Positions 13,057-61,015 of a stretch of 64,000 nucleotides of DNA are shown here, piece by piece (position 1 is the first letter of the stretch; the number at the start of each line of letters is the position of its first letter). The DNA lies in the NCBI GenBank assembly GCA_043801445.1, contig JAZDMB010000046.1:19253-83252 (forward strand), read 5' to 3'. Under the pieces are notes generated by a model, which was not told where the DNA came from, ran no database searches, and was given only the letters and a program-made list of their open reading frames with translations. This stretch comes from Planctomycetota bacterium. GTDB taxonomy: Bacteria > Planctomycetota > MHYJ01 > JACQXL01. A program made the position numbers and the translations under genes.

Positions 13057-13282
13057 GGACACAGATAAATACAGAGACTTCGCCTACACAGATTAACAGA
13101 ATTTATTTATAAGGAAACCATGAGACCAAGAAAATTACTCCTGTTTTTCCTGGTCTCCTTATAGAAATTATCCGCCTGCCCGACCTTTCGGTCGTTCGGG
13201 CGGGTGTCTATCTGCGTTCATCTGTGTCCTATGTGTCTCTGCGTTCTCTGCCTGCCCTCCGAAGCATTGCATAGGAGGGTGG
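13057..13282. repeat. Nested palindromic repeat cluster
   Basis: CACAGAT...ATCTGTG outer arms enclosing TTATAAGGAAACC...GGTCTCCTTATA and a 30-bp element at 13175-13204. Confidence 0.8.
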
Positions 13283-13380
13283 GTTCATTATTTAATCTGC
13301 CTGCCTACTTGGTGTAATCTACGGTTATGTTTTCGTGTCGGTGTATTGGAAAAAATGAGGAATAAAGAAGAGTATATTAT

Positions 13381-13824
13381 TTATCCTTGTTTCAGGTATT
13401 TGACGTCGAGTTTATCCTTTTCCCGGCCGGTTGATTCCTTATTTTTGATAAGGTCTGATTTAGACAATAACGGAATTTTCAGATTTTCCACATCGATATT
13501 TTTCCGTTTAGGATACGCTTTTTTAAACTCAACTCCGTCAATTTGGGTGATAATATCAATTCTCCTGGGTGCCACGCCGATCTGGAAAATAATGCCTTTC
13601 TTGCAGAAAGTCTTTTCGTTAATCATGGCCATCGGCGCTTTGAATTCAGAAAGCGATTGATATATTTTAGCGGAGTTTTCAGGGGTGTTCTCAACCCAGA
13701 TATCAAGGTCGCCGGTGGCTCTGGGGTATCCGTAGGCGCCCATTGCATAAGCACCGACTACAAGGAATTTAACATCATTGCTTGATAAGAGCTGCAACAT
13801 TTCTTTGTAATCTTCGTTCAGCAC
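13381..13824 (-). CDS. Predicted nucleotidyltransferase (DUF6036/MNT-like)
   Basis: VVGAYAM...PRATGDLD motif and C-terminal K..TGREKD. Confidence 0.75.
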   Translation of the reverse strand: MLNEDYKEMLQLLSSNDVKFLVVGAYAMGAYGYPRATGDLDIWVENTPENSAKIYQSLSEFKAPMAMINEKTFCKKGIIFQIGVAPRRIDIITQIDGVEFKKAYPKRKNIDVENLKIPLLSKSDLIKNKESTGREKDKLDVKYLKQG

Positions 13825-13969
13825 TGCCTGACTCCTTTAATGACCACAATTCAGAGGTTAATTCCCAGATAAAAGCGATGCGTTCGCCGGGCGATGTTTT
13901 CATATAATCCGACTCGGGCAATTCCGCCATTTTTTTGATGGTGATGTTATTCCTTTTTACCTTTATCAT
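13775..13969 (-). CDS. Small partner protein of the nucleotidyltransferase
   Basis: 64 aa, overlaps the NTase start; SPGERI...RRLQRNV pattern. Confidence 0.55.
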   Translation of the reverse strand: MIKVKRNNITIKKMAELPESDYMKTSPGERIAFIWELTSELWSLKESGSAERRLQRNVAALIKQ

Positions 13970-13975
13970 GATATT

Positions 13976-14003
13976 ATTATATCTTTTTGGCAGGTAAAGT
14001 CAA
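13976..14003 (-). promoter_or_regulatory. Sigma70-like promoter, probably leaderless
   Basis: TTGACT-N16-TATAAT on the minus strand, ending 6 nt before ATG 13969. Confidence 0.5.
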
Positions 14004-16679: not shown

Positions 16680-16988
16680 CTTTAATCTTAGTAATCTGGG
16701 GACATATGCGCCCAGTGCGTTTCTACCGATACTCGCTGATGGTTCGCTATGCCCGGTCACGGTAGTGTTTCCCGGGCTCGTGGAACAGACCACACATTTT
16801 TTTAGCCCTTTATCTATGCGTCTTTGCGGGCACGGTTTTTATAAAATGCACTGATTCCGGGTCAGCCACGAATTTACCGCACCTGCCCGAATGAACATTC
16901 GTTCAGGCGGGGAGACACAGAGAACACAAAGAAATCAGTCTGCTGTACCAAGAATTTACCAGATTTCCACTCCTTAGAGTTAATAAAA

Positions 16989-18092: not shown

Positions 18093-18284
18093 ACATTATC
18101 CTTATAATTCCGTGTTAGCCACAGAGGCATAATAAAGTCAAAAGTAAAAAGTATTAAGTAAAAAGTCAGAGCTTTTACCATTTAACTTCTAACTTTCAAC
18201 TTAACATCTCCACACCAGTGCCTGACGGCAGGCAGGGACACAGAGAAATCGGTCTGCTGTCCACCGAATTATCCCACCGTCATG

Positions 18285-23082: not shown

Positions 23083-23234
23083 ATTTGTTTTCTCCTTTCG
23101 TGTTGTTTTCTATCTGCCCGACAACGGTCAGGCGGAAAGACAAAAGTTGACCGTTTAATTCATTGAATAATTAAATAACCTTGAGATACCTAACGGTATT
23201 CTATTTAATAGTATCCCGTAAGGGATTGCTAATA

Positions 23235-23771: not shown

Positions 23772-25505
23772 CTATATTTTACGTGATATGTTTTCTTCCG
23801 TTATTCTTTTAATAAAGCTTTCCAGGGAACAAGAACCTGTGGTCCCCTTACCTCTTTCGCGTACTGCCACAGTCAAATCTTTTTCTTCCTTATCACCAAC
23901 AACAAGAATATAAGGTATTTTTTGATTGGAAGCATTTTTGATTCGTTCTGATAATCTTTCATTGCGCAGGTCTGCTTCCGCGCGGAATCCTGATGACAAT
24001 AATTCGGAAAGTATTTTATTGGCATACTGATGCTGTTCCGGAACTACCGGCAATACAATAGCCTGAACCGGTGAAAGCCAAAGCGGAAATGCGCCACCGT
24101 AATGCTCAATTAATACGCCGAAGAATCTTTCTAACGACCCTAAAAGCGCGCGGTGAATCATTATCGGCTTTTGCCTGGTGCCGTCGTCTGCGCTGTAGTA
24201 TAAATCAAAACGTTCGGGCAGGTTGAAATCAACCTGAACAGTAAAGCACTGCCAGTCGCGACCGAGCGAATCCTTGATATCAATATCCATCTTGGGACCA
24301 TAAAAGACCGCCTCGCCTTCGTCCACGGAATACGGCAATCCGGTATCTTCAACCGCCTCCTTGAGAATAGCGGTTGCCTTATCCCAGTTTTCAATCGTGC
24401 CGACATATTTGTCTTTTGGCCTGGTTGATAATCTCATTTTAAACTCGGTGAATCCAAAAGAGCGAAAAATATGCAAGCCGAATTTAATTACGTCCTTGAC
24501 CTCTTTAAGCAGTTGGTCAAAGCGGCAGAAGATATGGGCATCATCCTGGGTAAACCCGCGCACCCTGAAAAGACCCTGCAGCACTCCGGAGCGTTCATAA
24601 CGGTAGACTGTGCCCAGTTCTGCCCAGCGAATCGGCAAATCACGGTAACTACGCACAGTGCTTTTATAGACCAGGATATGGCCGGGACAATTCATTGGTT
24701 TCAGAATATATTCCTGGCCGTCAATATCTATCGGCGAATACATATTTTCGTGATAGAAATCCCAATGGCCCGAGGTTTTCCACAGGCCGATGCGGGCAAT
24801 ATGCGGCGCGAAGATTAATTCATATCCGTTTTTAAGATGTTCGTTTCTCCAGAAATCCTCGATTGTCTTACGGATGATAGCGCCTTTGGGATGCCAGAAA
24901 ACCAGACCCGGGCCGGCATCATCATACTGGATGCTGAATAAATCAAGATCCTTGCCCAATCTGCGGTGGTCACGTTTTTTTACCTCTTCGCGGTGTTTCA
25001 GGAATGCATCCAATTCTTCCCTGGTAAAGAAAACGGTCCCATAAATCCGCTGGAGCATCTTGTTCTTTTCATTGCCGCGCCAGTAAGCGCCTGTCGCAGA
25101 GAAAAGTTTATAATGTTTTACTAAACCTGTCCTCTCAATGTGAGGACCACGGCACATATCCGTGAAATTACCGTGTTTATAGAAAGTGATTTTATCATCA
25201 GGAAGCTCATTAATCATTTCTGTCTTATAAGGCTCGTTTTTCATCTTTTCAAGAGCCTCAGAACGGCTCAATTCGCTCCGTTCAAACTTAACATCAGTTT
25301 TAACGATTTTTGACATCTCTTCTTCTATCTTTATCAGGTCATCTTGAGTAAAAGGTGTCTGGGTATCAAAATCGTAATAAAATCCCTCCTCAATAGACGG
25401 ACCAATAGCTAATTTAACTTCAGGGAAAAGCCTTTTGACAGCATCTGCCATAATATGTGACGTGGAGTGCCTGAGAGTCTCTATTTCTATATTTAGCTTA
25501 TTCAT
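23772..25505 (-). CDS. thrS: Threonine--tRNA ligase (no N-terminal TGS domain)
   Basis: LRHSTSH, CRGPH, KPMNCPGH, RVRGFTQDDAH, HRALLGSLERF. Confidence 0.97.
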   Translation of the reverse strand: MNKLNIEIETLRHSTSHIMADAVKRLFPEVKLAIGPSIEEGFYYDFDTQTPFTQDDLIKIEEEMSKIVKTDVKFERSELSRSEALEKMKNEPYKTEMINELPDDKITFYKHGNFTDMCRGPHIERTGLVKHYKLFSATGAYWRGNEKNKMLQRIYGTVFFTREELDAFLKHREEVKKRDHRRLGKDLDLFSIQYDDAGPGLVFWHPKGAIIRKTIEDFWRNEHLKNGYELIFAPHIARIGLWKTSGHWDFYHENMYSPIDIDGQEYILKPMNCPGHILVYKSTVRSYRDLPIRWAELGTVYRYERSGVLQGLFRVRGFTQDDAHIFCRFDQLLKEVKDVIKFGLHIFRSFGFTEFKMRLSTRPKDKYVGTIENWDKATAILKEAVEDTGLPYSVDEGEAVFYGPKMDIDIKDSLGRDWQCFTVQVDFNLPERFDLYYSADDGTRQKPIMIHRALLGSLERFFGVLIEHYGGAFPLWLSPVQAIVLPVVPEQHQYANKILSELLSSGFRAEADLRNERLSERIKNASNQKIPYILVVGDKEEKDLTVAVRERGKGTTGSCSLESFIKRITEENISRKI

Positions 25506-25515
25506 TATTTTATAT

Positions 25516-26697
25516 TTATAGTAACGACATTTCTTTGCCAACAGATTGGCATATTTCTAAAACCTTGTTAAGTTCATTATCAGTATGAGTAGCCATATAA
25601 CTGGTACGGATAAGCGAACCGTCCGGAGGTACCGCCGGAGAAATTACCGGATTAGCAAAAACACCTTTATCAAAAAGTTTACGCCAGAATTTAAAAGTAA
25701 CCATATCCTCACCAAATATTAAAGGGATAATCGGCGTTTGAGTCGGACCGATATTAAATCCTAACCGAAGATATTCCTTATGCATTCGTCGTGTAATCTG
25801 CCAGAGGCGGTCTCGCCTTTGCGGTTCAGACTTGATAATCTTGAGAGCGGCTAAAACCGTTGCAACTGCCGATGGCGGCATACTTGCGCTAAAAATAAGC
25901 GCGCGGGCATTATGCTTGATGTAACTGATGACTGTGTCTTCTCCGGCAATAAAACCGCCCAATGAAGCAAATGATTTACTGAAAGTCCCCATTACCAAAT
26001 CGACATCTTTTTCCACATGAAAATGTTCAGCGGTTCCTCTGCCATTTGCCCCCATCACTCCGATTCCATGGGCATCATCCACCATCAAACGAGCTTTAAA
26101 TTTCCTTTTCAATTTAACTATTTCAGCAAGATTAGCTAAATCTCCTTCCATGCTAAAAACACCATCAATAATAATCAAAGCATTGGAAGGATCCGGCAGT
26201 TCTGATAAAACCCGTTTCAGGTCAGCCATATCGTTGTGTTTGTATTTAATGATTTTTCCAAAAGATAACCGGCAACCATCAACAATACTGGCATGATTGC
26301 CCCTATCAATAATGGCAACATCGTTTTTACCTACAATCGTGGAAATCACTCCTTGATTGGTCTGAAAACCGGTTGAGAAAATGAGCGCGCTTTCCTTATG
26401 CATAAAGGAAGCCAATTCTTGCTCGAGTTCCTCATGAATATCCAGTGTGCCGTTGAGGAATCGAGAGCCGGTGCACCCGGAACCGTATTTTTCTATGGCT
26501 CGGATTGATGCTTCCTTAACCGCAGGATGCTGGGTAAGACCGAGGTAATTATTTGAACCAATCATTATCATCTTGCGGCCATCAATCAAAACCTCGGTAT
26601 CAGCACCAGATTGAATGGCTTTGAAATAAGGATAATACCCTTGCTTCTTCGCCTCTTTGACACGCGTATACTTATAACACTTGGAAAATATTTCCAT
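25516..26697 (-). CDS. Alpha-oxoamine synthase (serine palmitoyltransferase/BioF/Kbl family)
   Basis: SNNYLGL, GSRFLNG, NHASI, DDAHG, GTFSKS. Confidence 0.88.
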   Translation of the reverse strand: MEIFSKCYKYTRVKEAKKQGYYPYFKAIQSGADTEVLIDGRKMIMIGSNNYLGLTQHPAVKEASIRAIEKYGSGCTGSRFLNGTLDIHEELEQELASFMHKESALIFSTGFQTNQGVISTIVGKNDVAIIDRGNHASIVDGCRLSFGKIIKYKHNDMADLKRVLSELPDPSNALIIIDGVFSMEGDLANLAEIVKLKRKFKARLMVDDAHGIGVMGANGRGTAEHFHVEKDVDLVMGTFSKSFASLGGFIAGEDTVISYIKHNARALIFSASMPPSAVATVLAALKIIKSEPQRRDRLWQITRRMHKEYLRLGFNIGPTQTPIIPLIFGEDMVTFKFWRKLFDKGVFANPVISPAVPPDGSLIRTSYMATHTDNELNKVLEICQSVGKEMSLL

Positions 26698-26748
26698 AAA
26701 GCTTTTTCTTTATATCTTTAAAATATAACTGTCAACTATTTCTCATCT

Positions 26749-27642
26749 TTAATCCGGATGGAATTCCAAGCTTTTGAAGCCATCCATTTGAGTGCGAATA
26801 TCAGTGATGATTTCCTGAGGTGTTTGATATCTGATTTCTTTTTCTTTAGCCATCATTTTTTCAATAAAATACAAAACGAGCGGAGAAATACGGCGGTTCT
26901 TTATTTCGTCAGATTTAATGTTTGCCAAGACCTGCTGCGCCATCACTTCAAGATTATTCGTCCCGGTGAAAGGTGGTTTGCCGGTAATCATATGATATAA
27001 TGTCGCTCCGAGCGAATAAATATCACTGCGGATATCTATCGTCATCTGACCGCGCGACTGCTCAGGCGACATATATCCAATAGTGCCGGAAGTAGTCACT
27101 GCCCTTTCATCTTGATTATTTTCGCTTACTATCGACTGCGCGAATCCCAAATCGCATAATTTTATTATCCCAATTTTTTTATTCAATAAAAGATTATCAG
27201 GTTTAATATCGCGATGCAGAATATTTTGTTTCTGCAAATAATCCAACGCATCGGCAACCTGCATAATAATGAGCAATGATAATTCCTCATTAAGACCGGC
27301 AATCTTTCCTGCCTTGTCTCGGGCTTGGTCAATTAATTGCTGAACAGATTCGCCTTCTACATATTCCATCACCGAGTAATGTATTCCGTTAACACCTTCC
27401 GGCGGGGTAACATAATATCCCTTAACAATATGGGAATGATTGAATTTAATCAAAAGCGCTGATTCTCTTTGGAAACTGTAAAATAAAGAAATATTGCGGG
27501 CGGTCTTTGGATAAATAATTTTAATGGCAACCAATCTATTGCTTTTTACTTCCAGCGCCTTGAAAACAATACCCATCCCGCCAACGCCTAATCGCCCTAA
27601 AATTTGATAGCCTGGCAGAGTTTCCGATTCTTTATTTACCAT
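26749..27642 (-). CDS. Hanks-type Ser/Thr protein kinase
   Basis: LGVGGMG, VAIK, HRDIKPDN, DLG, GTIGYMSPEQ. Confidence 0.93.
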   Translation of the reverse strand: MVNKESETLPGYQILGRLGVGGMGIVFKALEVKSNRLVAIKIIYPKTARNISLFYSFQRESALLIKFNHSHIVKGYYVTPPEGVNGIHYSVMEYVEGESVQQLIDQARDKAGKIAGLNEELSLLIIMQVADALDYLQKQNILHRDIKPDNLLLNKKIGIIKLCDLGFAQSIVSENNQDERAVTTSGTIGYMSPEQSRGQMTIDIRSDIYSLGATLYHMITGKPPFTGTNNLEVMAQQVLANIKSDEIKNRRISPLVLYFIEKMMAKEKEIRYQTPQEIITDIRTQMDGFKSLEFHPD

Positions 27643-27773
27643 AATATATTAAATAAATGAATAAGTGTCTTGGCGGCAAATATTAATATAATTTCATATA
27701 AAATTAAAATGATAATATAAAAAGTATTATATTCCTTGATATATTAAATGCAATAGATATTTAATAAATATAT

Positions 27774-29489
27774 ATGAGTCCACTCCAGCAAAAAAAACTT
27801 TTTGGCGAGATTGCCCGCGGGATGAGACTGGTAACTGAGGAACAGATTAACGAAGCGCTAAAAATCCAGAAATCAACGGCCGGTGATAAAGGACATAAGA
27901 AGATAGGTGAAATCCTCGTAGAAAAAAGCATTCTAAAGCTATCTCAGGTTACGGCAATTCTCGCTAAACAATATAATCTTAGATTCGTCAGTTTTTCATC
28001 AATCAAAATACCGAATGAAGTAATTAAATCGGTGCCCAAAGCCACTGCTATCGAGCATAAAATTATTCCTCTGCAGAAAAAAGGTAATGTTTTAACATTA
28101 GCTTCATCTGTTCCTTTAGATGTTTTCAATATAGATAATCTGTGTTTTATGCTTGGCTGCAGTATCGAAGTAGTACTGGCATTACCCGATGAGATAAATC
28201 AGTCAATTGCCAAATATTATGGTTCCTCAGTTGAGGATTACAGCAATTTAGTCGGCGATATTGATGAAAATGATATTTCTATCCGGACAGGAAAAGATGA
28301 AGAAGTTATCACAGACGAGGCGCCGATTATTCGTCTCGTTCAAACTATCATTGCAGACTCGGTCAAAAACGGAGTCAGTGACATTCATATTGAACCGATG
28401 GAAAAAACACTGAGAATCCGTTATCGAATAGACGGTGTTTGCCAGGAAATAGAATCGCCTCCGAAAAGACTTCAGTCCTCAATGATTTCCCGCGTTAAAC
28501 TGATGGCCGGAATGGATATTGCCGAGAAACGCAAGCCCCAAGATGGTAGAATTCCTATTTCCGTTGAAGGCAAAGAGTTTGATATCCGTGTTTCATCACT
28601 TCCATCACAATACGGAGAAAGCATGGTTCTTCGTCTTTTGGAAAAACAATCATTGGTAACGTTAGAAGACCTTGGTTTCCATCCCGATGATTATCGCAGA
28701 TTCCAGTCTATCATAAAAAGGCCCAATGGTATTTTTCTGGTTACCGGTCCGACCGGTTCAGGCAAAACCACTACTCTTTACGCAGCTATAAAGGAATTAA
28801 ATAAACCTAACGTTAAAATTATTACGGCTGAAGACCCGGTTGAATATGTATTAAGCGGGGTGAATCAATGCCGTGTTCGTTCTGATATCGGATTTACTTT
28901 TACTTCCATAATCAGATCAATGTTACGCCAGGCACCTAATATTATTCTGGTTGGTGAAATCAGAGATGTAGAAACCGCAGACATAGCCATTCAGGCTGCA
29001 CTGACAGGCCATCTGGTATTCAGCACTCTTCACACCAATGATGCTCCTTCAGCCATAACACGCTTGTTGGATATGGGCGTAAAACCTTTTCTTGTTGCCG
29101 CTTCGATTCAGGCGATAATGGCTCAAAGATTAATCCGTATTTTGTGTCCTAAATGTAAACAGCCGTATATTCCGGAAGAATCAGAGCTTGCTATGATAGG
29201 ACTGACACCTAAAGACATTTCAGGCCATAATATTTATAAAGCTGTCGGCTGCAAGGAATGCAAGGAAGGTTATAAAAGCAGAAAAGGAATTTTTGAATTA
29301 TTGGAGATGAGTTCTACGCTTAAGGAAATGACTTTTCATAAAGAGTCAACCATAAAAATTTATGAGGAAGCCAAAATAAGCGGAGGAATGGTTTCTCTCT
29401 TAGATGACGGGGTCAGAAAAATACTTAGTGGACTTACCACTATTGAAGAAGTAATATCACTAAGCCGACGCGAAGATTTATCATATTAA
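27774..29489 (+). CDS. PilB/GspE assembly ATPase with MshEN-like N-terminus
   Basis: SDIHIEP, PQDGR, GPTGSGKTT, EDPVE, tetra-Cys motif. Confidence 0.92.
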   Translation: MSPLQQKKLFGEIARGMRLVTEEQINEALKIQKSTAGDKGHKKIGEILVEKSILKLSQVTAILAKQYNLRFVSFSSIKIPNEVIKSVPKATAIEHKIIPLQKKGNVLTLASSVPLDVFNIDNLCFMLGCSIEVVLALPDEINQSIAKYYGSSVEDYSNLVGDIDENDISIRTGKDEEVITDEAPIIRLVQTIIADSVKNGVSDIHIEPMEKTLRIRYRIDGVCQEIESPPKRLQSSMISRVKLMAGMDIAEKRKPQDGRIPISVEGKEFDIRVSSLPSQYGESMVLRLLEKQSLVTLEDLGFHPDDYRRFQSIIKRPNGIFLVTGPTGSGKTTTLYAAIKELNKPNVKIITAEDPVEYVLSGVNQCRVRSDIGFTFTSIIRSMLRQAPNIILVGEIRDVETADIAIQAALTGHLVFSTLHTNDAPSAITRLLDMGVKPFLVAASIQAIMAQRLIRILCPKCKQPYIPEESELAMIGLTPKDISGHNIYKAVGCKECKEGYKSRKGIFELLEMSSTLKEMTFHKESTIKIYEEAKISGGMVSLLDDGVRKILSGLTTIEEVISLSRREDLSY

Positions 29490-35611: not shown

Positions 35612-35669
35612 CCCGCCTGACCGGCGCCCCGCCCGGATGGACATCCGTTCGGACGGGCAGTCGGGCAGG
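35612..35669. repeat. 30-bp palindromic element nested inside another copy of the same family
   Basis: CCCGCCTGACCGGCGC[CCCGCCCGGA...TCGGACGGG]CAGTCGGGCAGG, located inside an AGCATAGAG heptamer hairpin. Confidence 0.8.
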
Positions 35670-41263: not shown

Positions 41264-41778
41264 ACCATTCTCCTTTTATATAAGGTTGATTCTGATATTA
41301 TATATTGCGTTTTCAGATTTTAACCGCCAAGCAGATAAATAAGATTAGCACTAAATTTTCACGAGATTTTTATAGTATTAATCTTGTGATTTTATCATTT
41401 CATTTTCCTTTAAGTTAACCTCCACTATTTTACTTCTAGCCATATTTATATCTATGAATTTAAAAATTGTCAAGTAATATTATATAAATTTCCTGCCCCT
41501 ATTAATCATGATTATTCATAAAATGTTTGGATTAATGACATCCTGTTTAAGATTGCTTCGTCCCTGACGGGACTTCCCTGGAATAGCAGTCCCGTAGGGG
41601 CGTCGCGCTGTTTCTCATAACACTTTTGGGACAACCTGATCAGAAAATGGTTGTTACAAATGAAATGATTGTAAGAAAATGAGCGTAGGGGAAAAGTCAA
41701 TCCCGACAGAGTCTGTCGGGATTGACTACATACCCGCCTGACCTGATAACCAATCAGGCAGGTCTCGAAATAACAATA

Positions 41779-42870: not shown

Positions 42871-44316
42871 TTATTTCTGTATTTTGATTTTATTTATGTC
42901 GTAATTTATTCTACTGATAACAACACCACTCAACAATTTCGGATAGAAATCAGTGGATTTCTGGGGCATCCGCTCGTTATGGATAGAAACATTTTTGACT
43001 TCCTCAATCTTAGTCGGGTTAAGAATGAAAGCCATCTGGTATTTTCCTCTCTGCACCTTTTCTATAGCTTCATCTTCAGAGCGGATATAATTAACCTTTT
43101 CCTCATTAGCAACCTGCTCTTTGGTAATATTCAATAATTTTTCAAGAATCAACGAATGCAAAATAGTTACATCCAATCTCTTCCAAATAGAAGAACGTTT
43201 CTCCGTGATAATCTTCTCAATCATCTTATCATCCTTAAGAGTAAGCATGTAGTATTTTTTTATTCCATTAACAACCAAGCCAAAAGCATGGGCAGTCTGA
43301 CCGGTCATACGAAGATCTTCTATCAAGTCCGTCCTAGCTAATTTTTCTTCCTTTGGAAAACGACAAGGATACTCATTAAGCCAGAGATATTGGGATATCT
43401 TCTTGAGGAAACTATTAGATGAAAAATTCTTTAGGCCAAAAATCAACCGATGGGTTGGTAAAACGGTTAATCCTTTGTCATCCATATTAATAAATGTCAT
43501 CATCCTATTTTCGTAAGACTCATTGCCGATGCATTTTAGGCTCAGTGCGCGCATCTCGTTTCGGTAATTGAGTGCGGTTTCATAACGATGATGACCGTCG
43601 GCAATAAAAACATCCTTATTTTTCATTGTATTTTGGACGATTTTAATTATCCGTGAGTCGGTAACCTTCCATAATTTATTGATTACCCCGTAATCATCCT
43701 TCAATTCCACATTCGGTTCCTTTTTTGCCGTAATTTTATTCAAGGCAGAATTGATGGTTAATTTCGGGTCGGAATAGAGCATGAATATCTGACCGGTGGA
43801 ACCGCCGGTCGCACGCATCTGATTTAATCTATCCTGTTTGGGTTTAAGCAATGTTCGTTCATGAGGATGGACGCCCCGGCCAAAGTCCTTCAAACGCATC
43901 AGGGCAATAAAACCTTTTCTGACCTGCAATTGTTTACCTGCCCGAACTGACGGCCGGTCAGGCGGGGAAGAAACGCCTTTAACCCGCCTGACCGGTAATC
44001 CAGTCGGGCAGGTCGGCGAATAATATTCCTGATGATAGGCATAAATAGCCCGCTTGGTATCATGAACCAATATTTTCTTGCTTAACCATTCTTCAATAGT
44101 TTCGCCGGCCCGGCTGTATTTATTATTATGTTCGTCATCGCTCTTGAGATCTTTACCCTTGGTAATGCGGACTAAATTATAAGGATGTCTCTTGTAGTAG
44201 ATATCCTGCATCTCGGGCGTGATTTTATCGTATGGCTGAGTCAGCACCAATCCGTAATTTTTGATTTTAGATTTGCTATACAATACTCCTAAAAATGGTA
44301 ATATCTCGGTCGTCAT
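42871..44316 (-). CDS. DUF1015 family protein
   Basis: PYD, PHERT, IADGHHRY, MPQKSTDFYPK; likely start ATG 44316. Confidence 0.88.
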   Translation of the reverse strand: MTTEILPFLGVLYSKSKIKNYGLVLTQPYDKITPEMQDIYYKRHPYNLVRITKGKDLKSDDEHNNKYSRAGETIEEWLSKKILVHDTKRAIYAYHQEYYSPTCPTGLPVRRVKGVSSPPDRPSVRAGKQLQVRKGFIALMRLKDFGRGVHPHERTLLKPKQDRLNQMRATGGSTGQIFMLYSDPKLTINSALNKITAKKEPNVELKDDYGVINKLWKVTDSRIIKIVQNTMKNKDVFIADGHHRYETALNYRNEMRALSLKCIGNESYENRMMTFINMDDKGLTVLPTHRLIFGLKNFSSNSFLKKISQYLWLNEYPCRFPKEEKLARTDLIEDLRMTGQTAHAFGLVVNGIKKYYMLTLKDDKMIEKIITEKRSSIWKRLDVTILHSLILEKLLNITKEQVANEEKVNYIRSEDEAIEKVQRGKYQMAFILNPTKIEEVKNVSIHNERMPQKSTDFYPKLLSGVVISRINYDINKIKIQK

Positions 44317-44379: not shown

Positions 44380-44739
44380 TTATCGAGTTAAGTTTTTCAA
44401 TTCATCGACAGCACTCTTGAGATTTTTAGTAATGCTGTAAAAATTAGAGAGTTTGAAAATCTTAAAGGCCTCCTTTACGGTTGGTTTAGGATTAACAAAA
44501 ACTATGGCACCTTTGTGTTCATCCAATGAATCAATAAAAGAAATGAATAGACCAATACCCGGGCTTCCCATATAATTTACCTTGGATAAATCCACGACGA
44601 ATTTCCAGATTTTACGGACGAATAAATCACGAAAGACCGTTAATAGCGTCCCAGATGTTTCATTATTCAAAATACCATTCAACGATATTAAATAGATATC
44701 TTTCTCGAGCTGTTTTGTGTCAATAAAAAGTTCAAGCAT
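44380..44739 (-). CDS. STAS-domain anti-sigma factor antagonist
   Basis: DLSKVNYMGSPGIG. Confidence 0.8.
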   Translation of the reverse strand: MLELFIDTKQLEKDIYLISLNGILNNETSGTLLTVFRDLFVRKIWKFVVDLSKVNYMGSPGIGLFISFIDSLDEHKGAIVFVNPKPTVKEAFKIFKLSNFYSITKNLKSAVDELKNLTR

Positions 44740-45670: not shown

Positions 45671-45977
45671 TTCCCCCTCCTTGCTTACTAAATTATAATG
45701 TATTTTTATTTATTTGTATACTTATAAAAAAAATCGTCAATATTTATAGGATTAAATTCGGTGATGATATATAAATTAGCAAGCGAATTTAACAGGTGGA
45801 AGAACACGAATCAGACGAATAAGGCGACCTGTCCGAATAACCATTCGATCGGGCGGGTAAGACGATTTAGAATTATTCGCTAGCACCCCGCGGGGTGTGA
45901 AGGATTCGTTCCATTCGTACTATTCGTGTTTAGTATTAATTCAGTTTAATCAGTTAAATCCTGTTGTTTATTTGATT

Positions 45978-47105
45978 ATGATTTTTCTAAAACAACTATG
46001 GTTTAAGGCAGTCCAACAAAACCAAAAGGGAGTTATTTATTTACTCGTAAGATTGTTTTTCAAATTACTCTCATTGTTTTATCTAATCCTCATAAAACTA
46101 CGCATCTTGCTCTATCAAAAAGGTATTATAAAATCATCAAAATTACCAGCCTATATTATCAGTGTCGGAAACATTACGGTGGGAGGCACCGGAAAAACAC
46201 CCTTCGTGAATTATCTATCTGAGACACTCACCAAAAATTCATCGGAAGAAAACTCTTCGGAGCATCCCTGTACCAGAAACAAATCCGCCTTCGGCGGAAA
46301 AGTCGGTATCCTAAGCAGAGGATATGGAAGCCGCCGTAAACAGATTTCAGATGATGAATCCTTTCCTTTGCCTGATAATGTGGTAAGAATTGTTACTCCC
46401 AATAGAATTATCGGCGGTACAGAACTTATAGAAAGACACGGGATAAAAACCATAATTCTTGACGACGGTTTTCAGCATCTGAAATTAAAACGAGATATAA
46501 ACTTAATTATCATCGATGCAACCAATTCTTTCGGAAACGGCTGGGTTTTACCGGGAGGAATTTTAAGAGAACCGCTGTCCTGTTTGAATCGCGCAGATAT
46601 TTTTGTCATTACACATACGGATCTTGTCACACGAGAACAATTATCCGCATTAGAATCAAAATTAAGCCATTATAATAAAAAGATTATCAGAACAATCCAT
46701 AAACCTCAATACCTGGTATTAATCAACCCGCCTGACCGGATGACCAGTCAGACAGGTCAAACACCCGATAAGAAAGTTGAATTGTCAGAAATAAGAGGTA
46801 AAACTGCCTGGGGATTTTGTGGCATCGGCAATCCGTATCAATTCCATAAAACACTTGAACCACTCTGTAACATAAAAGGTTTTTCTATTTTTTCCGACCA
46901 TTATTACTACTCCACAAATGATTTATCTATTATATTTGATAAGGCAAAAGATAAGAAGTCAGAACTATTTATCACTACAGAAAAGGATGCGTTAAGACTA
47001 AAAGACATAAAGATACGAAATGAAATGCCAATATATTACCTGAAAATAAAAATAGAGGTTATTGGGGGAGAAGATATTATACAAAGCATAGAGCATAGGA
47101 CTTAG
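45978..47105 (+). CDS. lpxK: Tetraacyldisaccharide 4'-kinase
   Basis: VGNITVGGTGKTP, LSRGYG, LDDGFQH, LREP, TTEKD; likely start ATG 45978. Confidence 0.93.
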   Translation: MIFLKQLWFKAVQQNQKGVIYLLVRLFFKLLSLFYLILIKLRILLYQKGIIKSSKLPAYIISVGNITVGGTGKTPFVNYLSETLTKNSSEENSSEHPCTRNKSAFGGKVGILSRGYGSRRKQISDDESFPLPDNVVRIVTPNRIIGGTELIERHGIKTIILDDGFQHLKLKRDINLIIIDATNSFGNGWVLPGGILREPLSCLNRADIFVITHTDLVTREQLSALESKLSHYNKKIIRTIHKPQYLVLINPPDRMTSQTGQTPDKKVELSEIRGKTAWGFCGIGNPYQFHKTLEPLCNIKGFSIFSDHYYYSTNDLSIIFDKAKDKKSELFITTEKDALRLKDIKIRNEMPIYYLKIKIEVIGGEDIIQSIEHRT

Positions 47106-47162: not shown

Positions 47163-48302
47163 ATGCTCTACTATCGTATTATTGATGTTAACAGTAATCG
47201 GGCCAGGGAAGCAACACGCGTTATTGAGGATTATGCACGTTTCATCCTTGAAGATGCAACATTATATAACCAGATTCGCTCTATCAGGCATAATCTCATC
47301 AAAATATTATCACCGATAACGCCTAACTTATTATATTCACGCGATATCGAAATGGATTTAGGAAAAAACACTATTAGTAATAAAAAGAATTTGCCGGAGA
47401 TAATCATATCAAGTTTCAGGCGTCTCTCAGAAGCACTACGTTCAATCACAGAATACCTGAAGATACAACCTGCCAGAACGGGTGCCCCCTGCCCGAACGA
47501 CTGTTCGGTCGGGCGGGTGTCGGGCTGGTCACCAGCTCTTGCCACAAGAATAGAAAAACTTAGATTCGAGGCTTATCAATTAGAGCAAGGATTTTTCTAC
47601 CTGCTTTATCCCAAGCAATTACTCCAAAAAATAAGACTTTATGTTCTGGTTCCCGAGAAAATAGATAATCGGCCCATAGATAAAATTATCACCGAATTAA
47701 TTAAAGGTGGCGCTGACGCCATCCAGTTACGAGCCGAAAAACTGAACGATAAGGAATTACTTATACTGGCAAGGAAGATAAGAAAAATAACGCGCCATGC
47801 AAATATGCTATTTATTGTTAACGACCGAATTGATATTGCTTTATTAAGCCAGGCAGACGGGATTCATTTGGGAGAAACTGATATTTCAATCCGTGATGCC
47901 AGACGATTATTAGGTTCTGATAAAATTATCGGAGCAACCAGCCATTCAATAGAAGAAGCGCTTGATGCGGAAAAGAACGGCGCCGATTATATTTCAGTTG
48001 GCCCATTCTTCCCATCTCCAACCAAACCATTACTTAAACCGCGTGGATTTGGCTACCTAAAAAATATCGCTAAAAAGATTCATATTCCTTATATTGCTAT
48101 CGGCGGAATAAATAAAACAAATTTACCTGTTTTATTAAAGACACATAAAAAACTATTTAAATCACCTATCAAAATCGCTGTCTCATCTGCTATATTAACC
48201 AGGCCCTTGCACGCAGGGGCTTGGTTAACCGATGAAAATATCTGTAGTACAACCAGACAGATAAAAACATTAATATTAACCACTCAAACTGGACACAAAT
48301 GA
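47163..48302 (+). CDS. thiE: Thiamine-phosphate synthase with N-terminal ThiD2 domain
   Basis: R.ID.N.NRARE..RVIED N-terminus; QLR, NDR, GIHLG, SPTK, AIGGI. Confidence 0.9.
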   Translation: MLYYRIIDVNSNRAREATRVIEDYARFILEDATLYNQIRSIRHNLIKILSPITPNLLYSRDIEMDLGKNTISNKKNLPEIIISSFRRLSEALRSITEYLKIQPARTGAPCPNDCSVGRVSGWSPALATRIEKLRFEAYQLEQGFFYLLYPKQLLQKIRLYVLVPEKIDNRPIDKIITELIKGGADAIQLRAEKLNDKELLILARKIRKITRHANMLFIVNDRIDIALLSQADGIHLGETDISIRDARRLLGSDKIIGATSHSIEEALDAEKNGADYISVGPFFPSPTKPLLKPRGFGYLKNIAKKIHIPYIAIGGINKTNLPVLLKTHKKLFKSPIKIAVSSAILTRPLHAGAWLTDENICSTTRQIKTLILTTQTGHK

Positions 48303-49048: not shown

Positions 49049-49061
49049 AAAGTACTCCTTG

Positions 49062-54520: not shown

Positions 54521-54589
54521 TGATACAAACCCAATGGAACAAATGAACCTGTTTGACCGCAAGCAAAAGCTTACTTTACTGAATTGTAT

Positions 54590-54895: not shown

Positions 54896-55184
54896 ACAGT
54901 ATCCATCAAATAGAACGCAGATTTTCACAGATAAATGCAGCTAATATAAGAGGTTTTGAGTGAATTACTCTTTCAATTAACTGTATTCTATATTAATAGT
55001 ATCCCGTAAGGGATAGAACAGATAAAATCCCCCTATTTCATCCTTTGTCAAAGATGAATTTACAAAAACTTTCGGTTAATAACTACTATAACAAAGACAC
55101 TAAATCATTTTTTTTGTTTACTATAGGTTAAGACTTTGTTAACGAGGTAACATTTTCCATACCTGATGCCGATTTTGTGCATAA

Positions 55185-55449
55185 TAGACCGTAAGTCCGT
55201 GGCAAATAGACCGTAAGTATCTGGCACATAGACCATAAGTATCTGACATATAGACCGTAAGTATATGGCACATAGACCGTGAGTATCTGGCATATAGACC
55301 GTGAGTATTTGGCATATAGACTGGGAGTATGTGGCATATAGACCGGGAGTATGTGGCATATAGACTGGGAGTATGTGGCATATAGACTGGGAGTATATGG
55401 CACATAGACTGGGAGTATGTGGCACATAGACCGTAAGTAGTTTGGCAGA
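55185..55449. repeat. Tandem array of 12 x 22 bp (TAGACYGKRAGTATNTGGCAYA)
   Basis: Units start every 22 nt from 55185 to 55427, with no spacers. Confidence 0.92.
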
Positions 55450-55507
55450 TACACTTAATACTGACCTTAAATACCCCCCTGCCCTATCCTACCCCCTCTG
55501 TCTCCTT

Positions 55508-55537: not shown

Positions 55538-55586
55538 AAATGCTTTTTATATTGATTTTATTGGTGGTAATTTTAAAATATTAATT

Positions 55587-56375: not shown

Positions 56376-57461
56376 ATGCGTAAATATAATGTTGCCATTG
56401 TCGGAGCCACTGGGCTGGCTGGACTAGAGACCATAAAAATACTTGCAGAACGTAAATTCCCTGTCAGCGAATTACGATTATTTGCTTCTGCAGGGTCAGC
56501 AGGAAAAAGTATAAAGTATCAAAGTAAAAAGATAAAAGTAAAGGAAATAAATAATAATGCATTCAAGGATATAGACATTGCCTTTTTTGCGGTTGATGGT
56601 TCAATCAGCAAGAAGTGGGCGCCGGTGGCAGTAAAGAGCGGAGCATTAGTAATTGACAAATCCAGCGCATTCAGGATGGATAAAAACGTGCCTCTGGTTA
56701 TTCCTGAAATAAACCTGCAGGCAATTGAAGAAAAGATAATAGATGAAAGAAAAAAGATGAAAGATAATAACCAAAAACTCTCATCTCTCATCTCTCATCT
56801 TTCATCTCTTCCCATGATTATTGCCAGCCCTAATTGCTCAACCGTTCCTTTGGCAATGATTCTAAAACCTCTCAACGATTATGCGAAAGTAAAAAGGGTC
56901 GTGGTATCCACTTATCAATCCGTTTCAGGTGCAGGACTGAAAGCAGTGCAGGAAATGGAGCAACAAACAAAACGGATTCTCCAACGAACAACGAGCAACG
57001 AGCAACGAACGACTAAACCTTTTGCCTTCAACGCCATCCCCCAAATAGATTCTTTCGGCTCAGATGACTACACCGGTGAAGAAACGAAAATGATAAATGA
57101 AACTCTCAAGATACTTGATGACTATTCTATAAAGATAACAGCCACCTGTGTGCGGATTCCGGTCTATTGCGGGCATAGCGAATCGGTCAACATCGAGACA
57201 GCCAGACCTATAACGATTACTACAATCAGAAAATTATTAATCAAAACAAAAGGTGTCACGGTAATGGACAATCCACAAAATGGTATTTATCCGATGCCGA
57301 TAGAGGTTGCAGGCAAAGACGATGTATATGTAGGCAGGATTCGTAAAGACCCGACAGTCAAGAACGGGCTGAATCTCTGGCTGGTATCGGACAACCTGCG
57401 CAAAGGCGCCGCACTTAATGCAGTCCAAATAGCGGAATACCTTATTAATCGTTTTTTGTAG
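56376..57461 (+). CDS. asd: Aspartate-semialdehyde dehydrogenase
   Basis: GATG, SSAFRM, PNCST, YQSVSGAG, TCVRIPV..GHS, DNLRKGAA. Confidence 0.96.
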   Translation: MRKYNVAIVGATGLAGLETIKILAERKFPVSELRLFASAGSAGKSIKYQSKKIKVKEINNNAFKDIDIAFFAVDGSISKKWAPVAVKSGALVIDKSSAFRMDKNVPLVIPEINLQAIEEKIIDERKKMKDNNQKLSSLISHLSSLPMIIASPNCSTVPLAMILKPLNDYAKVKRVVVSTYQSVSGAGLKAVQEMEQQTKRILQRTTSNEQRTTKPFAFNAIPQIDSFGSDDYTGEETKMINETLKILDDYSIKITATCVRIPVYCGHSESVNIETARPITITTIRKLLIKTKGVTVMDNPQNGIYPMPIEVAGKDDVYVGRIRKDPTVKNGLNLWLVSDNLRKGAALNAVQIAEYLINRFL

Positions 57462-57567
57462 TTAGTTGTTCATTCACCGCAGATACGCAAAGATGTTAAG
57501 TTAGAAGTTAAAGGTTAAAAGTCCTAACTTTTTACTTACTACTTTTTACTTTTAACTTTATTATTCC

Positions 57568-59436
57568 ATGAATCAATACGATATCATTGTCGTCGGCGCC
57601 GGACACGCCGGGATAGAAGCCGCTTTGGTTTCTGCACGGATGGGTTGTTCCACGCTTCTTTTAACCATCTCTTTTGATTCTATCGCCCAGATGTCTTGTA
57701 ATCCCGCAATCGGTGGTTTAGCCAAGGGCCAGTTGGTTCGTGAGATTGATGCTCTGGGCGGTGAAATGGCTCGCGCCACTGATTATTCGGGCATCCAATT
57801 CCGTATTCTCAATACCGGTAAAGGTCCGGCTGTCCAATCTCCCCGCGCCCAATGTGATAAAAAAGAATATCACCTTTATATGCGAAAGGTATTAGAAAAT
57901 CAGGATAACCTTACTCTCAAAGAGTTGATGGTTGAAGAGATTATTGTGGACCATAATAAAGTAGTTGGTATTAAATCCCAAATCACAAATCTCAAATCTC
58001 AAATCCCGAATGAATATTACGCCAAGGCAGTCATCATCACCACAGGCACTTTTATGAAAGGGCTGATACATATCGGCGAAGAACAGTTCCCCGGCGGCAG
58101 AATCAACGAGCCGTCAGCCGAAAATATTTCAGCAAGTTTAAAGAAGATTGGATTGGAATTGGGACGCCTTAAGACCGGCACTCCCCCACGACTTGATACC
58201 CGAACCATAGATTATTCAAATCTGAGAGTTCAAAACGGTGATGAACCACCCAAACCTTTTTCATTCTCTACTGACCGAATTACCCAAAAACAGATTCCGT
58301 GTTATATAACTCATACCAATAAAAATACACACGAGATTATCAAGAAGAATTTACACCGCGCACCGCTTTATACAGGGCAGATTAAAGCCATCGGCCCGCG
58401 ATACTGCCCTTCGATTGAAGACAAGATAGTCAGATTTGCCGAGAGAGACCAGCACCAGATTTTTCTTGAGCCGGAAGGAAAAAACATTCATGAAGTCTAT
58501 TGTAACGGTATCTCAACCAGTCTGCCCCGTGATGTGCAGGAAGAAATGGTCCATTCGATTGATGGTTTAGAAAAAGCTAAATTTATCCGCTACGGCTATG
58601 CCATAGAATATGATGTGATCTTACCATATCAGATAAAGCCATCGCTTGAAACCAAGAAAATAGAGAATCTCTTTTTGGCAGGCCAGATAAACGGAACATC
58701 AGGTTACGAAGAAGCCGCAGCTCAGGGAATTATGGCTGGTATCAATGCTGTATTGAAAATCAGGAAAGAACCTGCCTGCGCCGAGGCTTCGGTAGGCAGG
58801 CCTCTTTTTATGCTCTCCAGAAGTGATGCCTATATCGGCGTCTTGGTAGATGATTTAGTAACACTGGGACCAACCGAACCGTATCGGATGTTCACTTCGC
58901 GCGCCGAATACCGCTTGCTACTGCGTTCCGACAATGCCGATAGACGTCTGATGCCTTACGCATTTAAGTTGGGGTTGCTCAATAAAGAACTACAGCACAG
59001 ATTACATAGTAAAGAAGAACTCATACAGAAAACAATCACTTTATTAAATAAATCATTTTCTAATGGTAAATCATTCAAAAGACTATTAAAACAACCTGAA
59101 ATCAGGCTTAAAGAATTAGAAGAAAAATCAAAACAATTACGATTACTGAATCTTACCGATGACATAAGGGAACAGGTTGAAATCGAAGTCAAATATGAAG
59201 GCTATATCCAGCGACAATTGCGTCAGATTGAACGGGCTAAGAAAATGGAGGATTATTTATTACCAGCCGAATTTGATTACAATAAAATAAAACATCTCAG
59301 CAAAGAAGCCAGGACCCAATTAAACAAATTCACGCCGTTATCCTTAGGCCAGGCAAGCCGTATCGCCGGCGTATCACCGGCAGATATTTCAGTTCTTATG
59401 ATATATTTCCTGAAGAAAAATAAAACCGCTGATTAA
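57568..59436 (+). CDS. mnmG: tRNA uridine-5-carboxymethylaminomethyl modification enzyme MnmG
   Basis: GAGHAG, MSCNPAIGG, KTGTPPR, GPRYCPSIEDK, GYEEAAAQG, RMFTSRAEYRL. Confidence 0.98.
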   Translation: MNQYDIIVVGAGHAGIEAALVSARMGCSTLLLTISFDSIAQMSCNPAIGGLAKGQLVREIDALGGEMARATDYSGIQFRILNTGKGPAVQSPRAQCDKKEYHLYMRKVLENQDNLTLKELMVEEIIVDHNKVVGIKSQITNLKSQIPNEYYAKAVIITTGTFMKGLIHIGEEQFPGGRINEPSAENISASLKKIGLELGRLKTGTPPRLDTRTIDYSNLRVQNGDEPPKPFSFSTDRITQKQIPCYITHTNKNTHEIIKKNLHRAPLYTGQIKAIGPRYCPSIEDKIVRFAERDQHQIFLEPEGKNIHEVYCNGISTSLPRDVQEEMVHSIDGLEKAKFIRYGYAIEYDVILPYQIKPSLETKKIENLFLAGQINGTSGYEEAAAQGIMAGINAVLKIRKEPACAEASVGRPLFMLSRSDAYIGVLVDDLVTLGPTEPYRMFTSRAEYRLLLRSDNADRRLMPYAFKLGLLNKELQHRLHSKEELIQKTITLLNKSFSNGKSFKRLLKQPEIRLKELEEKSKQLRLLNLTDDIREQVEIEVKYEGYIQRQLRQIERAKKMEDYLLPAEFDYNKIKHLSKEARTQLNKFTPLSLGQASRIAGVSPADISVLMIYFLKKNKTAD

Positions 59437-59493
59437 ACGGATTTCTGCCTAATCCGCCAAATCTGCGGTTAAAATGGATGCAGGCCGTAATGA

Positions 59494-60852
59494 TTAGTAT
59501 CTCCTTTTAATATATCTCTTAATAGTACGTATCCCCAAATATCTATAGCCATCGGTCAAAGCCGTTGTCAGACCGCCGTTATAATTAATATTAGCATTGC
59601 CACCAATGTCAACATCCACAGTACTACTGCTGGTAACCAAAGAACAAGTATCCTCTTTATCTTCAGCAATTACGCATCCATTAACGGTTGGAGTACCTAC
59701 AAGACTTACCTGTTCATGAGCAGCAAAAAGACCGACAAGAGCGCTGGAAGTAGAACCTCTCATCTTTAAATCTTTTCCAGACATGCAGGCAATATTACCA
59801 CCGCTTGGATGAGGAGATATACAAGGACTTCCCGACATCTCAATATACCCTTCCGCCAAGACACTTACCGGCCATGGAGTAGCTATTGAACCGGGAGAAC
59901 TGGTTATTTTCACATTACCACTCTCAAAATAAAATACGCCACTATCTGTTATACCGGTACCACTTCTACTCCAGAGTTGAGTAGCCGCAGCATAACTCCA
60001 ACCGGTTGGGGTAGCAAGAAGATTATTAAACTGGTCATAAACTTTGCCATCGGTCTTAAAAATATGGGTGCCTAAATATTTGTAAGTAGCCGGATTAATA
60101 GGTGGAATATAGGTAGCAGGAGCATAAGGTGTAATGGTTCCTCCAACAGTACCGGTGTTGTTTACAGCGCCTGTAGAAGTCACATCTCCGGATATATTTG
60201 CACTACCTGATACAGTAACCGGACCATTTGCCTGGATATCGCCTTCAGCACCGGTAATGGAAGCATGACCATATACATTAAGCGAACCACCCACTACCAA
60301 AGCGCCGCTAGCTATATAATTTGCTTCTTTATATTGGATTAATCCTTCAACTACCTGTGTTTGCGAACGTTGCAGAGGGTCATTACCGCCACCCCAGCCC
60401 TCAACCGTAATTTTAACAATATTATCTTTATCAACTAATGCGCTGCCGCCTAAAGCAGTATCGTCATTATTTTCTAATTTAACCCAAAAGGTGTTGCCGT
60501 AATAATTAATATTTCGGCACCATTGAATAGAAGTGGAAAGAGAAGTAGGTGTTATATTAAGAGAAGTTGCAGAAGCTGCATAAGTACCGGAAGCAGTGTT
60601 GCTGACACTGAGTTGAGAGCTCCAACAACCTGTTGTTGTATATGATTGAAGCAAATAAGCAGAAGATGCTTCAAATCCACTTAAGGCAGTCTGTTGATAA
60701 CTTTGGTCATCAATAGAAGACGTAAGTTGTTGTTGTTGAGCGCCTGAGGTTAAAACAAAAGCAATACCTAATCCGGCAATAATTACCGTGATAAGCATAA
60801 CTAAAACCATTATAGCCCCTTTTTCGTTCTTATTATTGCACATAGAATACAT
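59494..60852 (-). CDS. PilX-like minor pilin with C-terminal beta-helix-like domain
   Basis: KGAIMVLV N-terminal helix; last gene of the pilin trio. Confidence 0.7.
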   Translation of the reverse strand: MYSMCNNKNEKGAIMVLVMLITVIIAGLGIAFVLTSGAQQQQLTSSIDDQSYQQTALSGFEASSAYLLQSYTTTGCWSSQLSVSNTASGTYAASATSLNITPTSLSTSIQWCRNINYYGNTFWVKLENNDDTALGGSALVDKDNIVKITVEGWGGGNDPLQRSQTQVVEGLIQYKEANYIASGALVVGGSLNVYGHASITGAEGDIQANGPVTVSGSANISGDVTSTGAVNNTGTVGGTITPYAPATYIPPINPATYKYLGTHIFKTDGKVYDQFNNLLATPTGWSYAAATQLWSRSGTGITDSGVFYFESGNVKITSSPGSIATPWPVSVLAEGYIEMSGSPCISPHPSGGNIACMSGKDLKMRGSTSSALVGLFAAHEQVSLVGTPTVNGCVIAEDKEDTCSLVTSSSTVDVDIGGNANINYNGGLTTALTDGYRYLGIRTIKRYIKRRY

Positions 60853-61015
60853 CCTTAAAATCAGCCACCCCGCTTGGGCGGGACTCCGCTGTCGCTTCGC
60901 AGACCCGTCCCGATGAATATCGGGAGAACACAGAGAAAGAAATTAAATTTAATTATCCGTGTTTATCTGCCTGCCCGACCTTTCGGTCGTTCGGGCGGGT
61001 GGTTACGAAATATTA

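Follow-up and report, generated by a model that had tools for sequence, protein, structure and literature searches.

Hairpin copies in a 64-kb stretch of planctomycete DNA

The window analysed here is the whole of a 64-kb stretch of DNA from a draft Planctomycetota genome (2.31 Mb in 62 contigs, 40% GC). It carries, among others, genes for a urocanase, an alpha/beta-hydrolase, a protein of 1855 amino acids (aa), an aminotransferase, a DUF1015 protein, LpxK and a ThiD2-ThiE fusion and, both between and inside genes, copies of a GC-rich hairpin that is typically 30 nucleotides (nt) long. On the evidence presented below, we consider that these hairpins probably form a family of mobile DNA elements that are non-coding and very small, each built as an imperfect GC-rich hairpin.

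The window was scanned with the pattern CCTGCCYGA-N12-TCRGGCRGG, allowing up to two mismatches, and 100 dinucleotide-preserving shuffles served as control. Ten loci matched, each on both strands (13175, 16882, 35206, 41733, 43937, 43983, 45828, 46727, 47488 and 60970), against a mean of 0.01 in the shuffled sequences. All the copies listed in a preliminary description of this DNA were found to be present, including a diverged one at 35628 and two short ones at 23113 (24 nt) and 56099 (22 nt), and they are collected in Table 1. A 23-nt match at 12100, within the urocanase gene, looks like chance and was discarded.

Table 1. Hairpin copies and composites in the window (positions count from the first letter of the 64-kb stretch).
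Feature	Coordinates	Strand	Context
30-nt copy	13175-13204	+	intergenic, bordering a heptamer-like array; same sequence as the 60970 copy
30-nt copy, AATGAACATTCG-core subfamily	16882-16911	+	intergenic, followed by heptamer-like repeats
24-nt short copy, degenerate outer arms	23113-23136	+	probably intergenic
30-nt copy	35206-35235	+	first ~40 codons of an alpha/beta-hydrolase frame (34194-35321, minus strand)
58-nt nested composite	35612-35669	-	intergenic, 27 nt past the stop of the 1855-aa gene
30-nt copy	41733-41762	-	intergenic, just past the stop of the aminotransferase gene
30-nt copy	43937-43966	+	in frame in the DUF1015 gene, encodes PPDRPSVRAG
30-nt copy	43983-44012	-	in frame in the DUF1015 gene, encodes CPTGLPVRRV
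30-nt copy	45828-45857	+	within a ~200-nt intergenic heptamer-repeat foldback block
30-nt copy	46727-46756	-	in frame in lpxK
60-nt in-frame insertion	47469-47528	+	ThiD2-ThiE linker
22-nt short copy, 9-nt arms, 4-nt loop	56099-56120	+	intergenic
30-nt copy	60970-60999	+	intergenic; identical to the 13175 copy, 10 nt further along a similar heptamer-like flank

Two of the features are composites, in which one copy interrupts another. The composite at 35612-35669 consists of a 28-nt outer copy divided 16|12 by an inner copy of 30 nt (35628-35657), which belongs to a diverged subfamily nested in at least six places genome-wide, and the insertion at 47469-47528 consists of an outer 30-mer of a sister family (arms CCTGCCAGA and TCGGGCTGG) split 19|11 by the inner 30-mer 47488-47517. 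The copies at 43937 and 43983 lie 16 nt apart in inverted orientation, and the copy at 16882 has about ten near-identical counterparts with similar flanks in the genome. The identical copies at 13175 and 60970 had been reported to occupy shifted positions in the same host motif, and this was confirmed: they lie 10 nt out of register within similar heptamer-like flanks, so that each flank displays the other's site uninterrupted. No open reading frame (ORF) of at least 100 aa with a start codon spans the 13175 copy, and translation of the 35206 copy hinges on the true start codon of the hydrolase gene. The window contains no tRNA and no known RNA family at gathering score, and permissive RNA-family scans of two copies gave merely sub-threshold hairpin noise.

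Empty sites in a related genome and in near-identical strains

The window was compared with a genome of the same genus (G001), whose assembly is fragmented and which shares about 82% DNA identity over the compared stretch. In G001, the 43983 and 46727 sites are each shorter by exactly 30 nt, and exactly the 60 nt of 47469-47528 are missing; a further gap, again of exactly 60 nt, falls at 72948-73008 of contig C15, where a 30-mer identical to the 13175 copy is split 19|11 by another 30-mer. Both 60-nt gaps correspond to one 30-mer nested in another, and at the G001 empty sites no flanking bases are repeated or lost. None of the six copies in the compared stretch is common to the two genomes, and a block of about 200 nt around 45828 is wholly missing from G001.

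Contigs about 98% identical to the window were found in two groundwater metagenome runs (X1 and X2), which may include the sample behind the genome assembly and are read as within-population variation, not as independent replication. In the X1 contig, which is 6930 nt long and shows 139 differences from the window in 6873 nt, a gap of exactly 30 nt is found both at 43937 and at 43983, and the copies at 45828, 46727 and 47488 are present. A contig of X2 shows the same two gaps, the three copies are likewise retained in that run, and an X2 contig carries a further 33 nt inserted within the 46727 copy, after position 46738. The inverted pair 43937/43983 is thus absent jointly in both contigs, yet as two separate 30-nt gaps. 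In two further runs (X3 and X4) the stretch was covered only by short, more divergent pieces, and the uncovered parts were not interpreted. Distant orthologues (of genome G008 and others) also lack the DUF1015 inserts, which indicates that these are gains in this lineage.

Taken together, five empty sites covering seven elements are gaps of exactly 30 or 60 nt. The preliminary description had claimed insertion without target duplication, and had pointed to orthologous empty sites as the place where deletions or duplications would speak against it; the sites recovered favoured precise insertion. The hairpin is inserted exactly, with no target bases lost or duplicated, between genes, within genes and within the cores of other copies, and it is very likely that the family is a mobile element with precise, duplication-free insertion. 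Its turnover is recent enough to differ between strains that are about 98% identical, and the family still appears to be moving.

Run X2 differs from the window at two other places. In lpxK, in one of its contigs, a 58-nt stretch of other small GC hairpins (46241-46298, e.g. with a TCCGCC...GGCGGA stem) is replaced by one base, and so other hairpin families are also polymorphic between strains. Within a 119-codon ORF (44380-44739) an X2 contig skips 259 nt (44402-44662), a deletion in a near-identical strain.

Genome-wide census and anatomy of the hairpin

The genome-wide motif scan proposed in the preliminary description was run with at most one mismatch per 9-nt arm and a core of any length up to 24 nt, and it gave 228 loci of 18-42 nt in 2.31 Mb. 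The 30-nt class comprises 103 copies, followed by lengths of 27 nt (29 copies), 21 nt (15), 28 nt (14), 22 nt (10), 24 nt (8) and 29 nt (7); outside the 30-bp (base pair) class the remaining lengths are mostly 19-29 bp, and about 20 composites of 36-42 nt represent a copy in or against another copy. The constant length noted in the window therefore holds for 30 bp as the mode (103/228), although other lengths are frequent, and the cores vary as had been described, although they cluster in a handful of recurring subfamilies.

The element is an imperfect GC-rich hairpin with 9-nt arms (CCYGCCYGA / TCRGGCRGG) and a core of 3-12 nt, mostly 12. On one strand, T stands opposite G at arm position 3 in 194 of the 228 copies, and C stands opposite A at arm position 7 in 60 of 95 30-mers. 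With RNA parameters, the strand carrying the T.G pair is the more stable one in 56 of 67 distinct 30-mers (means of -16.7 versus -13.6 kcal/mol), and natural cores bring a gain of about 2 kcal/mol over shuffled ones; with DNA parameters, the T.G strand is the better folder in 4/4 pairs, at about -8 kcal/mol. Perfect Watson-Crick GC-rich hairpins with an 8-bp stem number 91 in the genome, and this whole-genome census of perfect hairpins revealed no other large family; it misses the present one because of the built-in non-Watson-Crick positions. The small number of perfect hairpins shows that the arm imperfections are a conserved feature of the dominant family and not decay. Decayed copies with one good arm left do occur, and orphan arms resemble either such decayed copies or outer halves left by nesting.

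Copies inside genes and selection on length

When stop-to-stop frames of at least 150 codons were taken as the in-gene class, a rough proxy that does not amount to gene calls, 133 of the 228 copies fell within long frames and 95 elsewhere. Four insertions in the window lie in Pfam-supported genes, two of them in DUF1015, one in lpxK and the 60-nt double one in the linker of the ThiD2-ThiE fusion; they comprise the copies at 43937, 43983, 46727 and 47488 together with the split sister-family copy that encloses the last. The inserts in DUF1015, LpxK and ThiD2-ThiE are missing from the orthologues.

Lengths that are multiples of three (3n) account for 118 of the 133 copies in long frames versus 55 of the 95 elsewhere, and 30 nt is the commonest length in each group (71 and 32 copies, respectively). 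It had been stated that the 30-nt length holds even between genes and that the element is intrinsically frame-preserving. The former is borne out in so far as 32 of the 95 copies outside long frames are 30 bp, but 40 of these 95 are not multiples of three, and the latter proved overstated: since non-3n lengths are common outside genes, it is selection that filters length within genes. The in-frame 30-mers occupy five of the six frames, with peptides that differ by frame, and the sixth frame, which reads TGA in most copies, holds 1 of 65. These data show that a hairpin persists within a gene only when it is 3n long and its frame is free of stops, in which case it adds 7-14 residues to the translated protein. 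That 3n lineages dominate may in turn stem from the mostly coding nature of the genome.

The orientation of the copies is unrelated to the strand of the host gene (64 same, 49 opposite, p = 0.19), which argues against a function in mRNA or an mRNA intermediate. This result bears on the possibility of RNA-mediated spread, whereby a small hairpin RNA would be reverse-spliced or reverse-transcribed into new sites, as Elhai et al. are said to have proposed in 2008 for the small dispersed repeats of Nostoc. The restriction of the G.U-type wobble to one strand speaks for such an RNA, and the nesting and the association with heptamer arrays described below match what is reported of the Nostoc elements. 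However, with a 64:49 distribution of orientations reverse splicing into mRNA fails for the in-gene copies, we saw no truncated or tailed copies of the kind typical of reverse transcription, and G.T pairs stabilise DNA hairpins too, so that the wobble is not specific to RNA. We therefore consider this route very unlikely.

The position of the copies relative to genes is also relevant to an explanation in which the hairpins are sites beneficial to the host, such as terminators, mRNA stabilisers or protein-binding or nucleoid sites, that are kept by selection and whose spread is incidental. The intergenic copies lying just past stop codons (41733, and 35612-35669 at 27 nt), the enrichment outside long frames (95/228) and the fact that REPs are credited with such roles in PMC3733652 are in line with this explanation. 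On the other hand, long frames hold 133 of the 228 copies, which occur there in both orientations and read in five of the six frames, and copies differ between strains that are about 98% identical, with 0/6 in the compared stretch common to G001. Moreover, decayed copies exist, and no T run follows the copies. A maintained host function thus appears improbable as the explanation of the family.

The DUF1015 orthologues of genomes G004, G005, G007, G006 and G001 (loci L002, L004, L005, L006 and L017) carry different GC-rich hairpin inserts in the same surface region, which is thus an insertion hot spot used independently in different genera. On contig C50 of this genome (G000; 24050-27944), eight family copies lie within 4 kb, several of them in one 812-codon frame; three 24-nt copies of this cluster encode near-identical peptides, and the cluster could represent either a repeat protein or a site favoured for insertion.

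Distribution across genomes

The strict pattern was found 121 times in this genome, 51 times in G001 and 26, 23, 17, 15, 14, 12, 11, 3, 3 and 1 times in ten further genomes, which represent three families of the same order. The family is therefore present in 12 of 31 related genomes, all of one order; no strict match turned up in the remaining 19 genomes searched, which include all 15 from other orders of the class, and a reversed-pattern control gave 0 matches in all 31. Identical 30-mers, core included, are common to genera with only 60-75% identity between their orthologous proteins.

When one genome of each species was scanned with a 30-mer specified at 20 bases, at least 84 stretches matched, of which 80 were examined. 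Among the matches listed, most belong to Patescibacteria (Nomura-, Sacchari-, Kaiser- and Adlerbacteria and others), Bacteroidota, Neomarinimicrobiota, Ignavibacteria and Planctomycetota, and those in Bacteroidota include an isolate, Emticicia sp. The cross-phylum matches show the same core subfamilies as this genome, and genes of Patescibacteria and Bacteroidota are among the places where the same 30-mers lie. Eight of the 80 examined stretches are in loci of at least 60% GC and may be chance, and one "Woesearchaeota" match shares its sample of origin with a planctomycete bin and could be the product of mis-binning. Frames of at least 150 codons contain 54 of the 80 stretches, and the three matches that we checked lie inside a UvrD/PD-(D/E)XK helicase-nuclease gene, carB and secA. 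In each of five such genomes from other phyla, 1-5 copies were counted. That subfamilies are common to genera and phyla would reflect a strong constraint by the machinery that moves them, horizontal spread, or both. Carriage by phages was considered and rejected, a viral collection having only one contig that matches the 30-nt pattern. No description of the family was found in a literature search that included the arm sequences as text; the supplements of PMC3733652 might list related families.

Insertion sites, clustering and heptamer arrays

Of 95 30-mers, 63 have A and 23 have G immediately before the hairpin (-1), which amounts to a weak site preference, while position +1 is T or G and position +2 is A in 55. 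Neighbouring copies are closer than expected, with 61 pairs less than 1.5 kb apart versus about 32 estimated under random placement, and nine pairs are at most 22 nt apart, in mixed orientations. At least six nested composites exist genome-wide, with the inner copy sitting in the core of the outer one, and most copies are singlets rather than inverted doublets. New copies thus tend to settle near old ones.

This tendency would also be produced if the replication or repair machinery of the host copied the hairpins, either by template switching to an existing hairpin or by capture of excised hairpin oligonucleotides at nicks. The preference for sites in or beside old copies (the nine pairs at up to 22 nt, the 61 pairs within 1.5 kb and the nesting) suits such copying, as do three other findings: no dedicated enzyme was found beside any copy, several unrelated hairpin families are variably present at the same loops when related genera and strains are compared, and the family occurs in Patescibacteria genomes of 0.6-0.8 Mb with few mobile genes. 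However, the ends are base-exact at all five empty sites, whereas template switching usually gives variable ends and needs microhomology. Fold-back copying would also tend to perfect the arms, and these are kept unequal in 194 of 228 copies. In addition, related genomes with the same housekeeping machinery hold anywhere between 0 and 121 copies. On balance, copying by the host is an unlikely origin of the insertions, and we retain mobility of the hairpin itself as the preferred reading.

Several intergenic copies are located in or beside heptamer repeat arrays (flanks of 13175, 16882, 45828 and 60970), and heptamer repeats are a general, abundant feature of this genome. The stretch at 45790-45960 has ACGAATA-like heptamer repeats on its left and their inverse on its right, forming a long foldback that holds the 45828 copy and a second small hairpin. 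Short period-7 arrays, mostly intergenic, were seen in the window at 18134, 20516, 21015, 47125, 49401, 53095, 56504-57010 and 57498-58011, and at 55179-55451 a 22-nt unit is repeated 12.3 times in tandem (87% matches).

Proposed mechanism and candidate enzymes

We propose that the moving form would be a folded single strand, because the arms are kept unequal and one strand folds better, and because a duplex of 30 bp lacks the length and flexibility that double-strand transposition or a circle intermediate requires. The chances of a single-strand hairpin intermediate are, in our judgement, evenly balanced. The hairpins would be mobilised in trans by an enzyme that reads the arms and the hairpin shape, and a HUH/Y1 (RAYT-like) protein would be the leading, unproven candidate; that an enzyme of this type performs the movement is proposed only tentatively. 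With comparable reserve, the family could possibly rank among the smallest mobile DNA known, moving in single-stranded, folded form via machinery conserved across phyla, be it a widespread Y1-like or a housekeeping enzyme and not a private transposase, and made up of lineages selected for 3n, stop-free frames.

The genome encodes three Y1_Tnp proteins, two of them full-length (regions 16304-16636 of contig C14 and 40594-40926 of contig C58). Against the NCBI model for REP-associated tyrosine transposases these two reach 78 and 73 bits, both below its cut-off of 80, and they keep what we take to be the H-hydrophobic-H motif. Two RAYT-like Y1 genes (1389-2152 of locus L021, from contig C14; 1183-1943 of locus L022, from contig C58) are each enclosed by a perfect inverted repeat of 15 or 21 nt; such bracketing by own inverted repeats characterises the TIR-associated tyrosine transposases of Di Nocera et al. 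(PMC3733652). Y1 or RAYT-like genes were also found in 5/5 tested element-bearing genomes of other phyla, although this protein family is common anyway. The Patescibacteria genomes G031 and G033 (0.6-0.8 Mb) have seven Y1_Tnp matches each, in ORFs of about 225-260 aa, many paralogues for genomes of their size. A link to four-helix-bundle cassettes of the 23S-IVS type was examined and rejected: one of ten such genes has a hairpin within 0.5 kb (423 nt), and for the rest the distance is at least 1.5 kb.

A number of results weigh against a mobile hairpin family served by such an enzyme. As regards the insertions, only five empty sites were recovered, and in a wider survey of G001 both flanks were found for 2 of 15 further copies (from two 20-kb regions), one of which (C12:22247) gave an unalignable, different insert. 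The strain polymorphism at 43937 may reflect precise excision instead of insertion, and the copy at 13175 was misfiled as in-gene by the frame criterion, a caveat on the in-gene counts. Copy orientation showed no link to local GC skew (Fisher p = 0.58-1.0, the skew being an unvalidated replication proxy in a draft of 62 contigs), although an IS608-like lagging-strand mechanism predicts such a bias.

As regards the enzyme, the 15- and 21-nt repeats that enclose the two RAYT-like genes are separate small families with 20 and 9 sites in the genome, which suggests that the Y1 genes serve their own inverted repeats instead of the hairpins. The nearest hairpin to any of the three Y1 genes is 7.6 kb off, two of their three contigs carry none, and 0/14 Y1 loci of this genome and its relatives hold a family hairpin; a RAYT/TnpA gene flanked by the hairpins, which the preliminary description had suggested looking for, was thus found neither at the three Y1 genes nor at the 14 loci. 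The Pfam Y1_Tnp domain occurs in 11 of the 12 genomes with hairpins and in 11 of the 19 without, and the corresponding figures for the RAYT-like NCBIfam model are 10/12 and 11/19; the distribution of these genes among the 31 relatives does not follow that of the hairpins, and G004 has two RAYT-like genes yet one strict copy. The unpaired GTAG/CGTC tag is absent as well, since among 194 oriented copies an adjacent GTAG was seen in 2, CGTC in 3 and GACG in 4. The HUH (Y1/RAYT) chemistry originally evoked therefore agrees with the anatomy (imperfect hairpin, preferred strand, no duplication) but fails in the test of association with RAYT genes, and it should be regarded as a reasonable deduction from anatomy and not as a finding.

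Significance and comparison with known systems

If the hairpins move as proposed, the lower size limit for mobile DNA would be one hairpin of 30 nt that has only its own stem by way of terminal repeats and duplicates no target. Its colonisation of coding sequence would be on a large scale, with more than 100 in-frame copies in a 2.3-Mb genome, and the family would constitute a continuing, cross-phylum source of 7-10-residue loops in essential proteins (SecA, CarB, UvrD-like helicases, LpxK). Such insertions would inflate apparent protein divergence, break metagenome contigs, mark strain-level variation and indicate where essential proteins have loops that tolerate them. Because identical 30-mers recur in several phyla, identification of the enzyme responsible could bring to light a widespread activity that inserts single-strand DNA and acts on defined, very short substrates.

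The family resembles the REP/REPIN-RAYT system in that both consist of 20-40-nt imperfect GC-rich palindromes in high copy number, with imperfections that mark one strand and with some copies in genes; single-strand recognition by an HUH enzyme is suspected, and RAYT-like genes are present in the genome. Intragenic REPs are treated in Di Nocera et al. (2013; PMC3733652) and the REP/REPIN-RAYT system in Bertels and Rainey (2011; PMC3116915). In contrast to that system, the present family has no GTAG/CGTC tag and no repeat-flanked RAYT gene, more than half of its hairpins lie in long frames whereas REPs are mainly extragenic, and the same hairpin sequences recur across phyla; the prevalence of singlets over inverted doublets may be a further difference.

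The Rickettsia palindromic elements (RPEs) are likewise palindromic selfish repeats that lie in frame in unrelated housekeeping genes and are translated as extra loops. In PMC10969869, which summarises Ogata et al. (2000), they are given as about 150 bp long, with a conserved peptide and confined to Rickettsia, and 44 copies are reported for R. conorii. The hairpins described here are 21-30 nt long, are read in five frames, occur in several phyla and are more numerous, with 133 in long frames. The family is thus not a member of the REP-RAYT or RPE groups, since it fails the defining tests of both.

In the IS200/IS605 group, with IS608 as the model, two different subterminal hairpins are recognised and insertion takes place 3' of a fixed tetra- or pentanucleotide. 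Hairpin-dependent insertion, the lack of target duplication and an imperfect hairpin that defines the active strand are shared with our family; the differences are that here a single hairpin is the whole element and that only the -1 position is biased, and the lack of strand bias by the unvalidated GC-skew proxy may be another. The small dispersed repeats (SDRs) of Nostocaceae are reportedly hairpins of 21-27 nt, nested in one another and lying in heptamer tandem repeats, and Elhai et al. (2008) are said to have proposed them as the smallest mobile elements, with an RNA intermediate. The small hairpins, the nesting and the embedding in heptamer arrays of this definition are all seen here. Set against the same reported description, our family is distinguished from the SDRs by its sequence and its host phyla, and by orientation data that disfavour an RNA intermediate.

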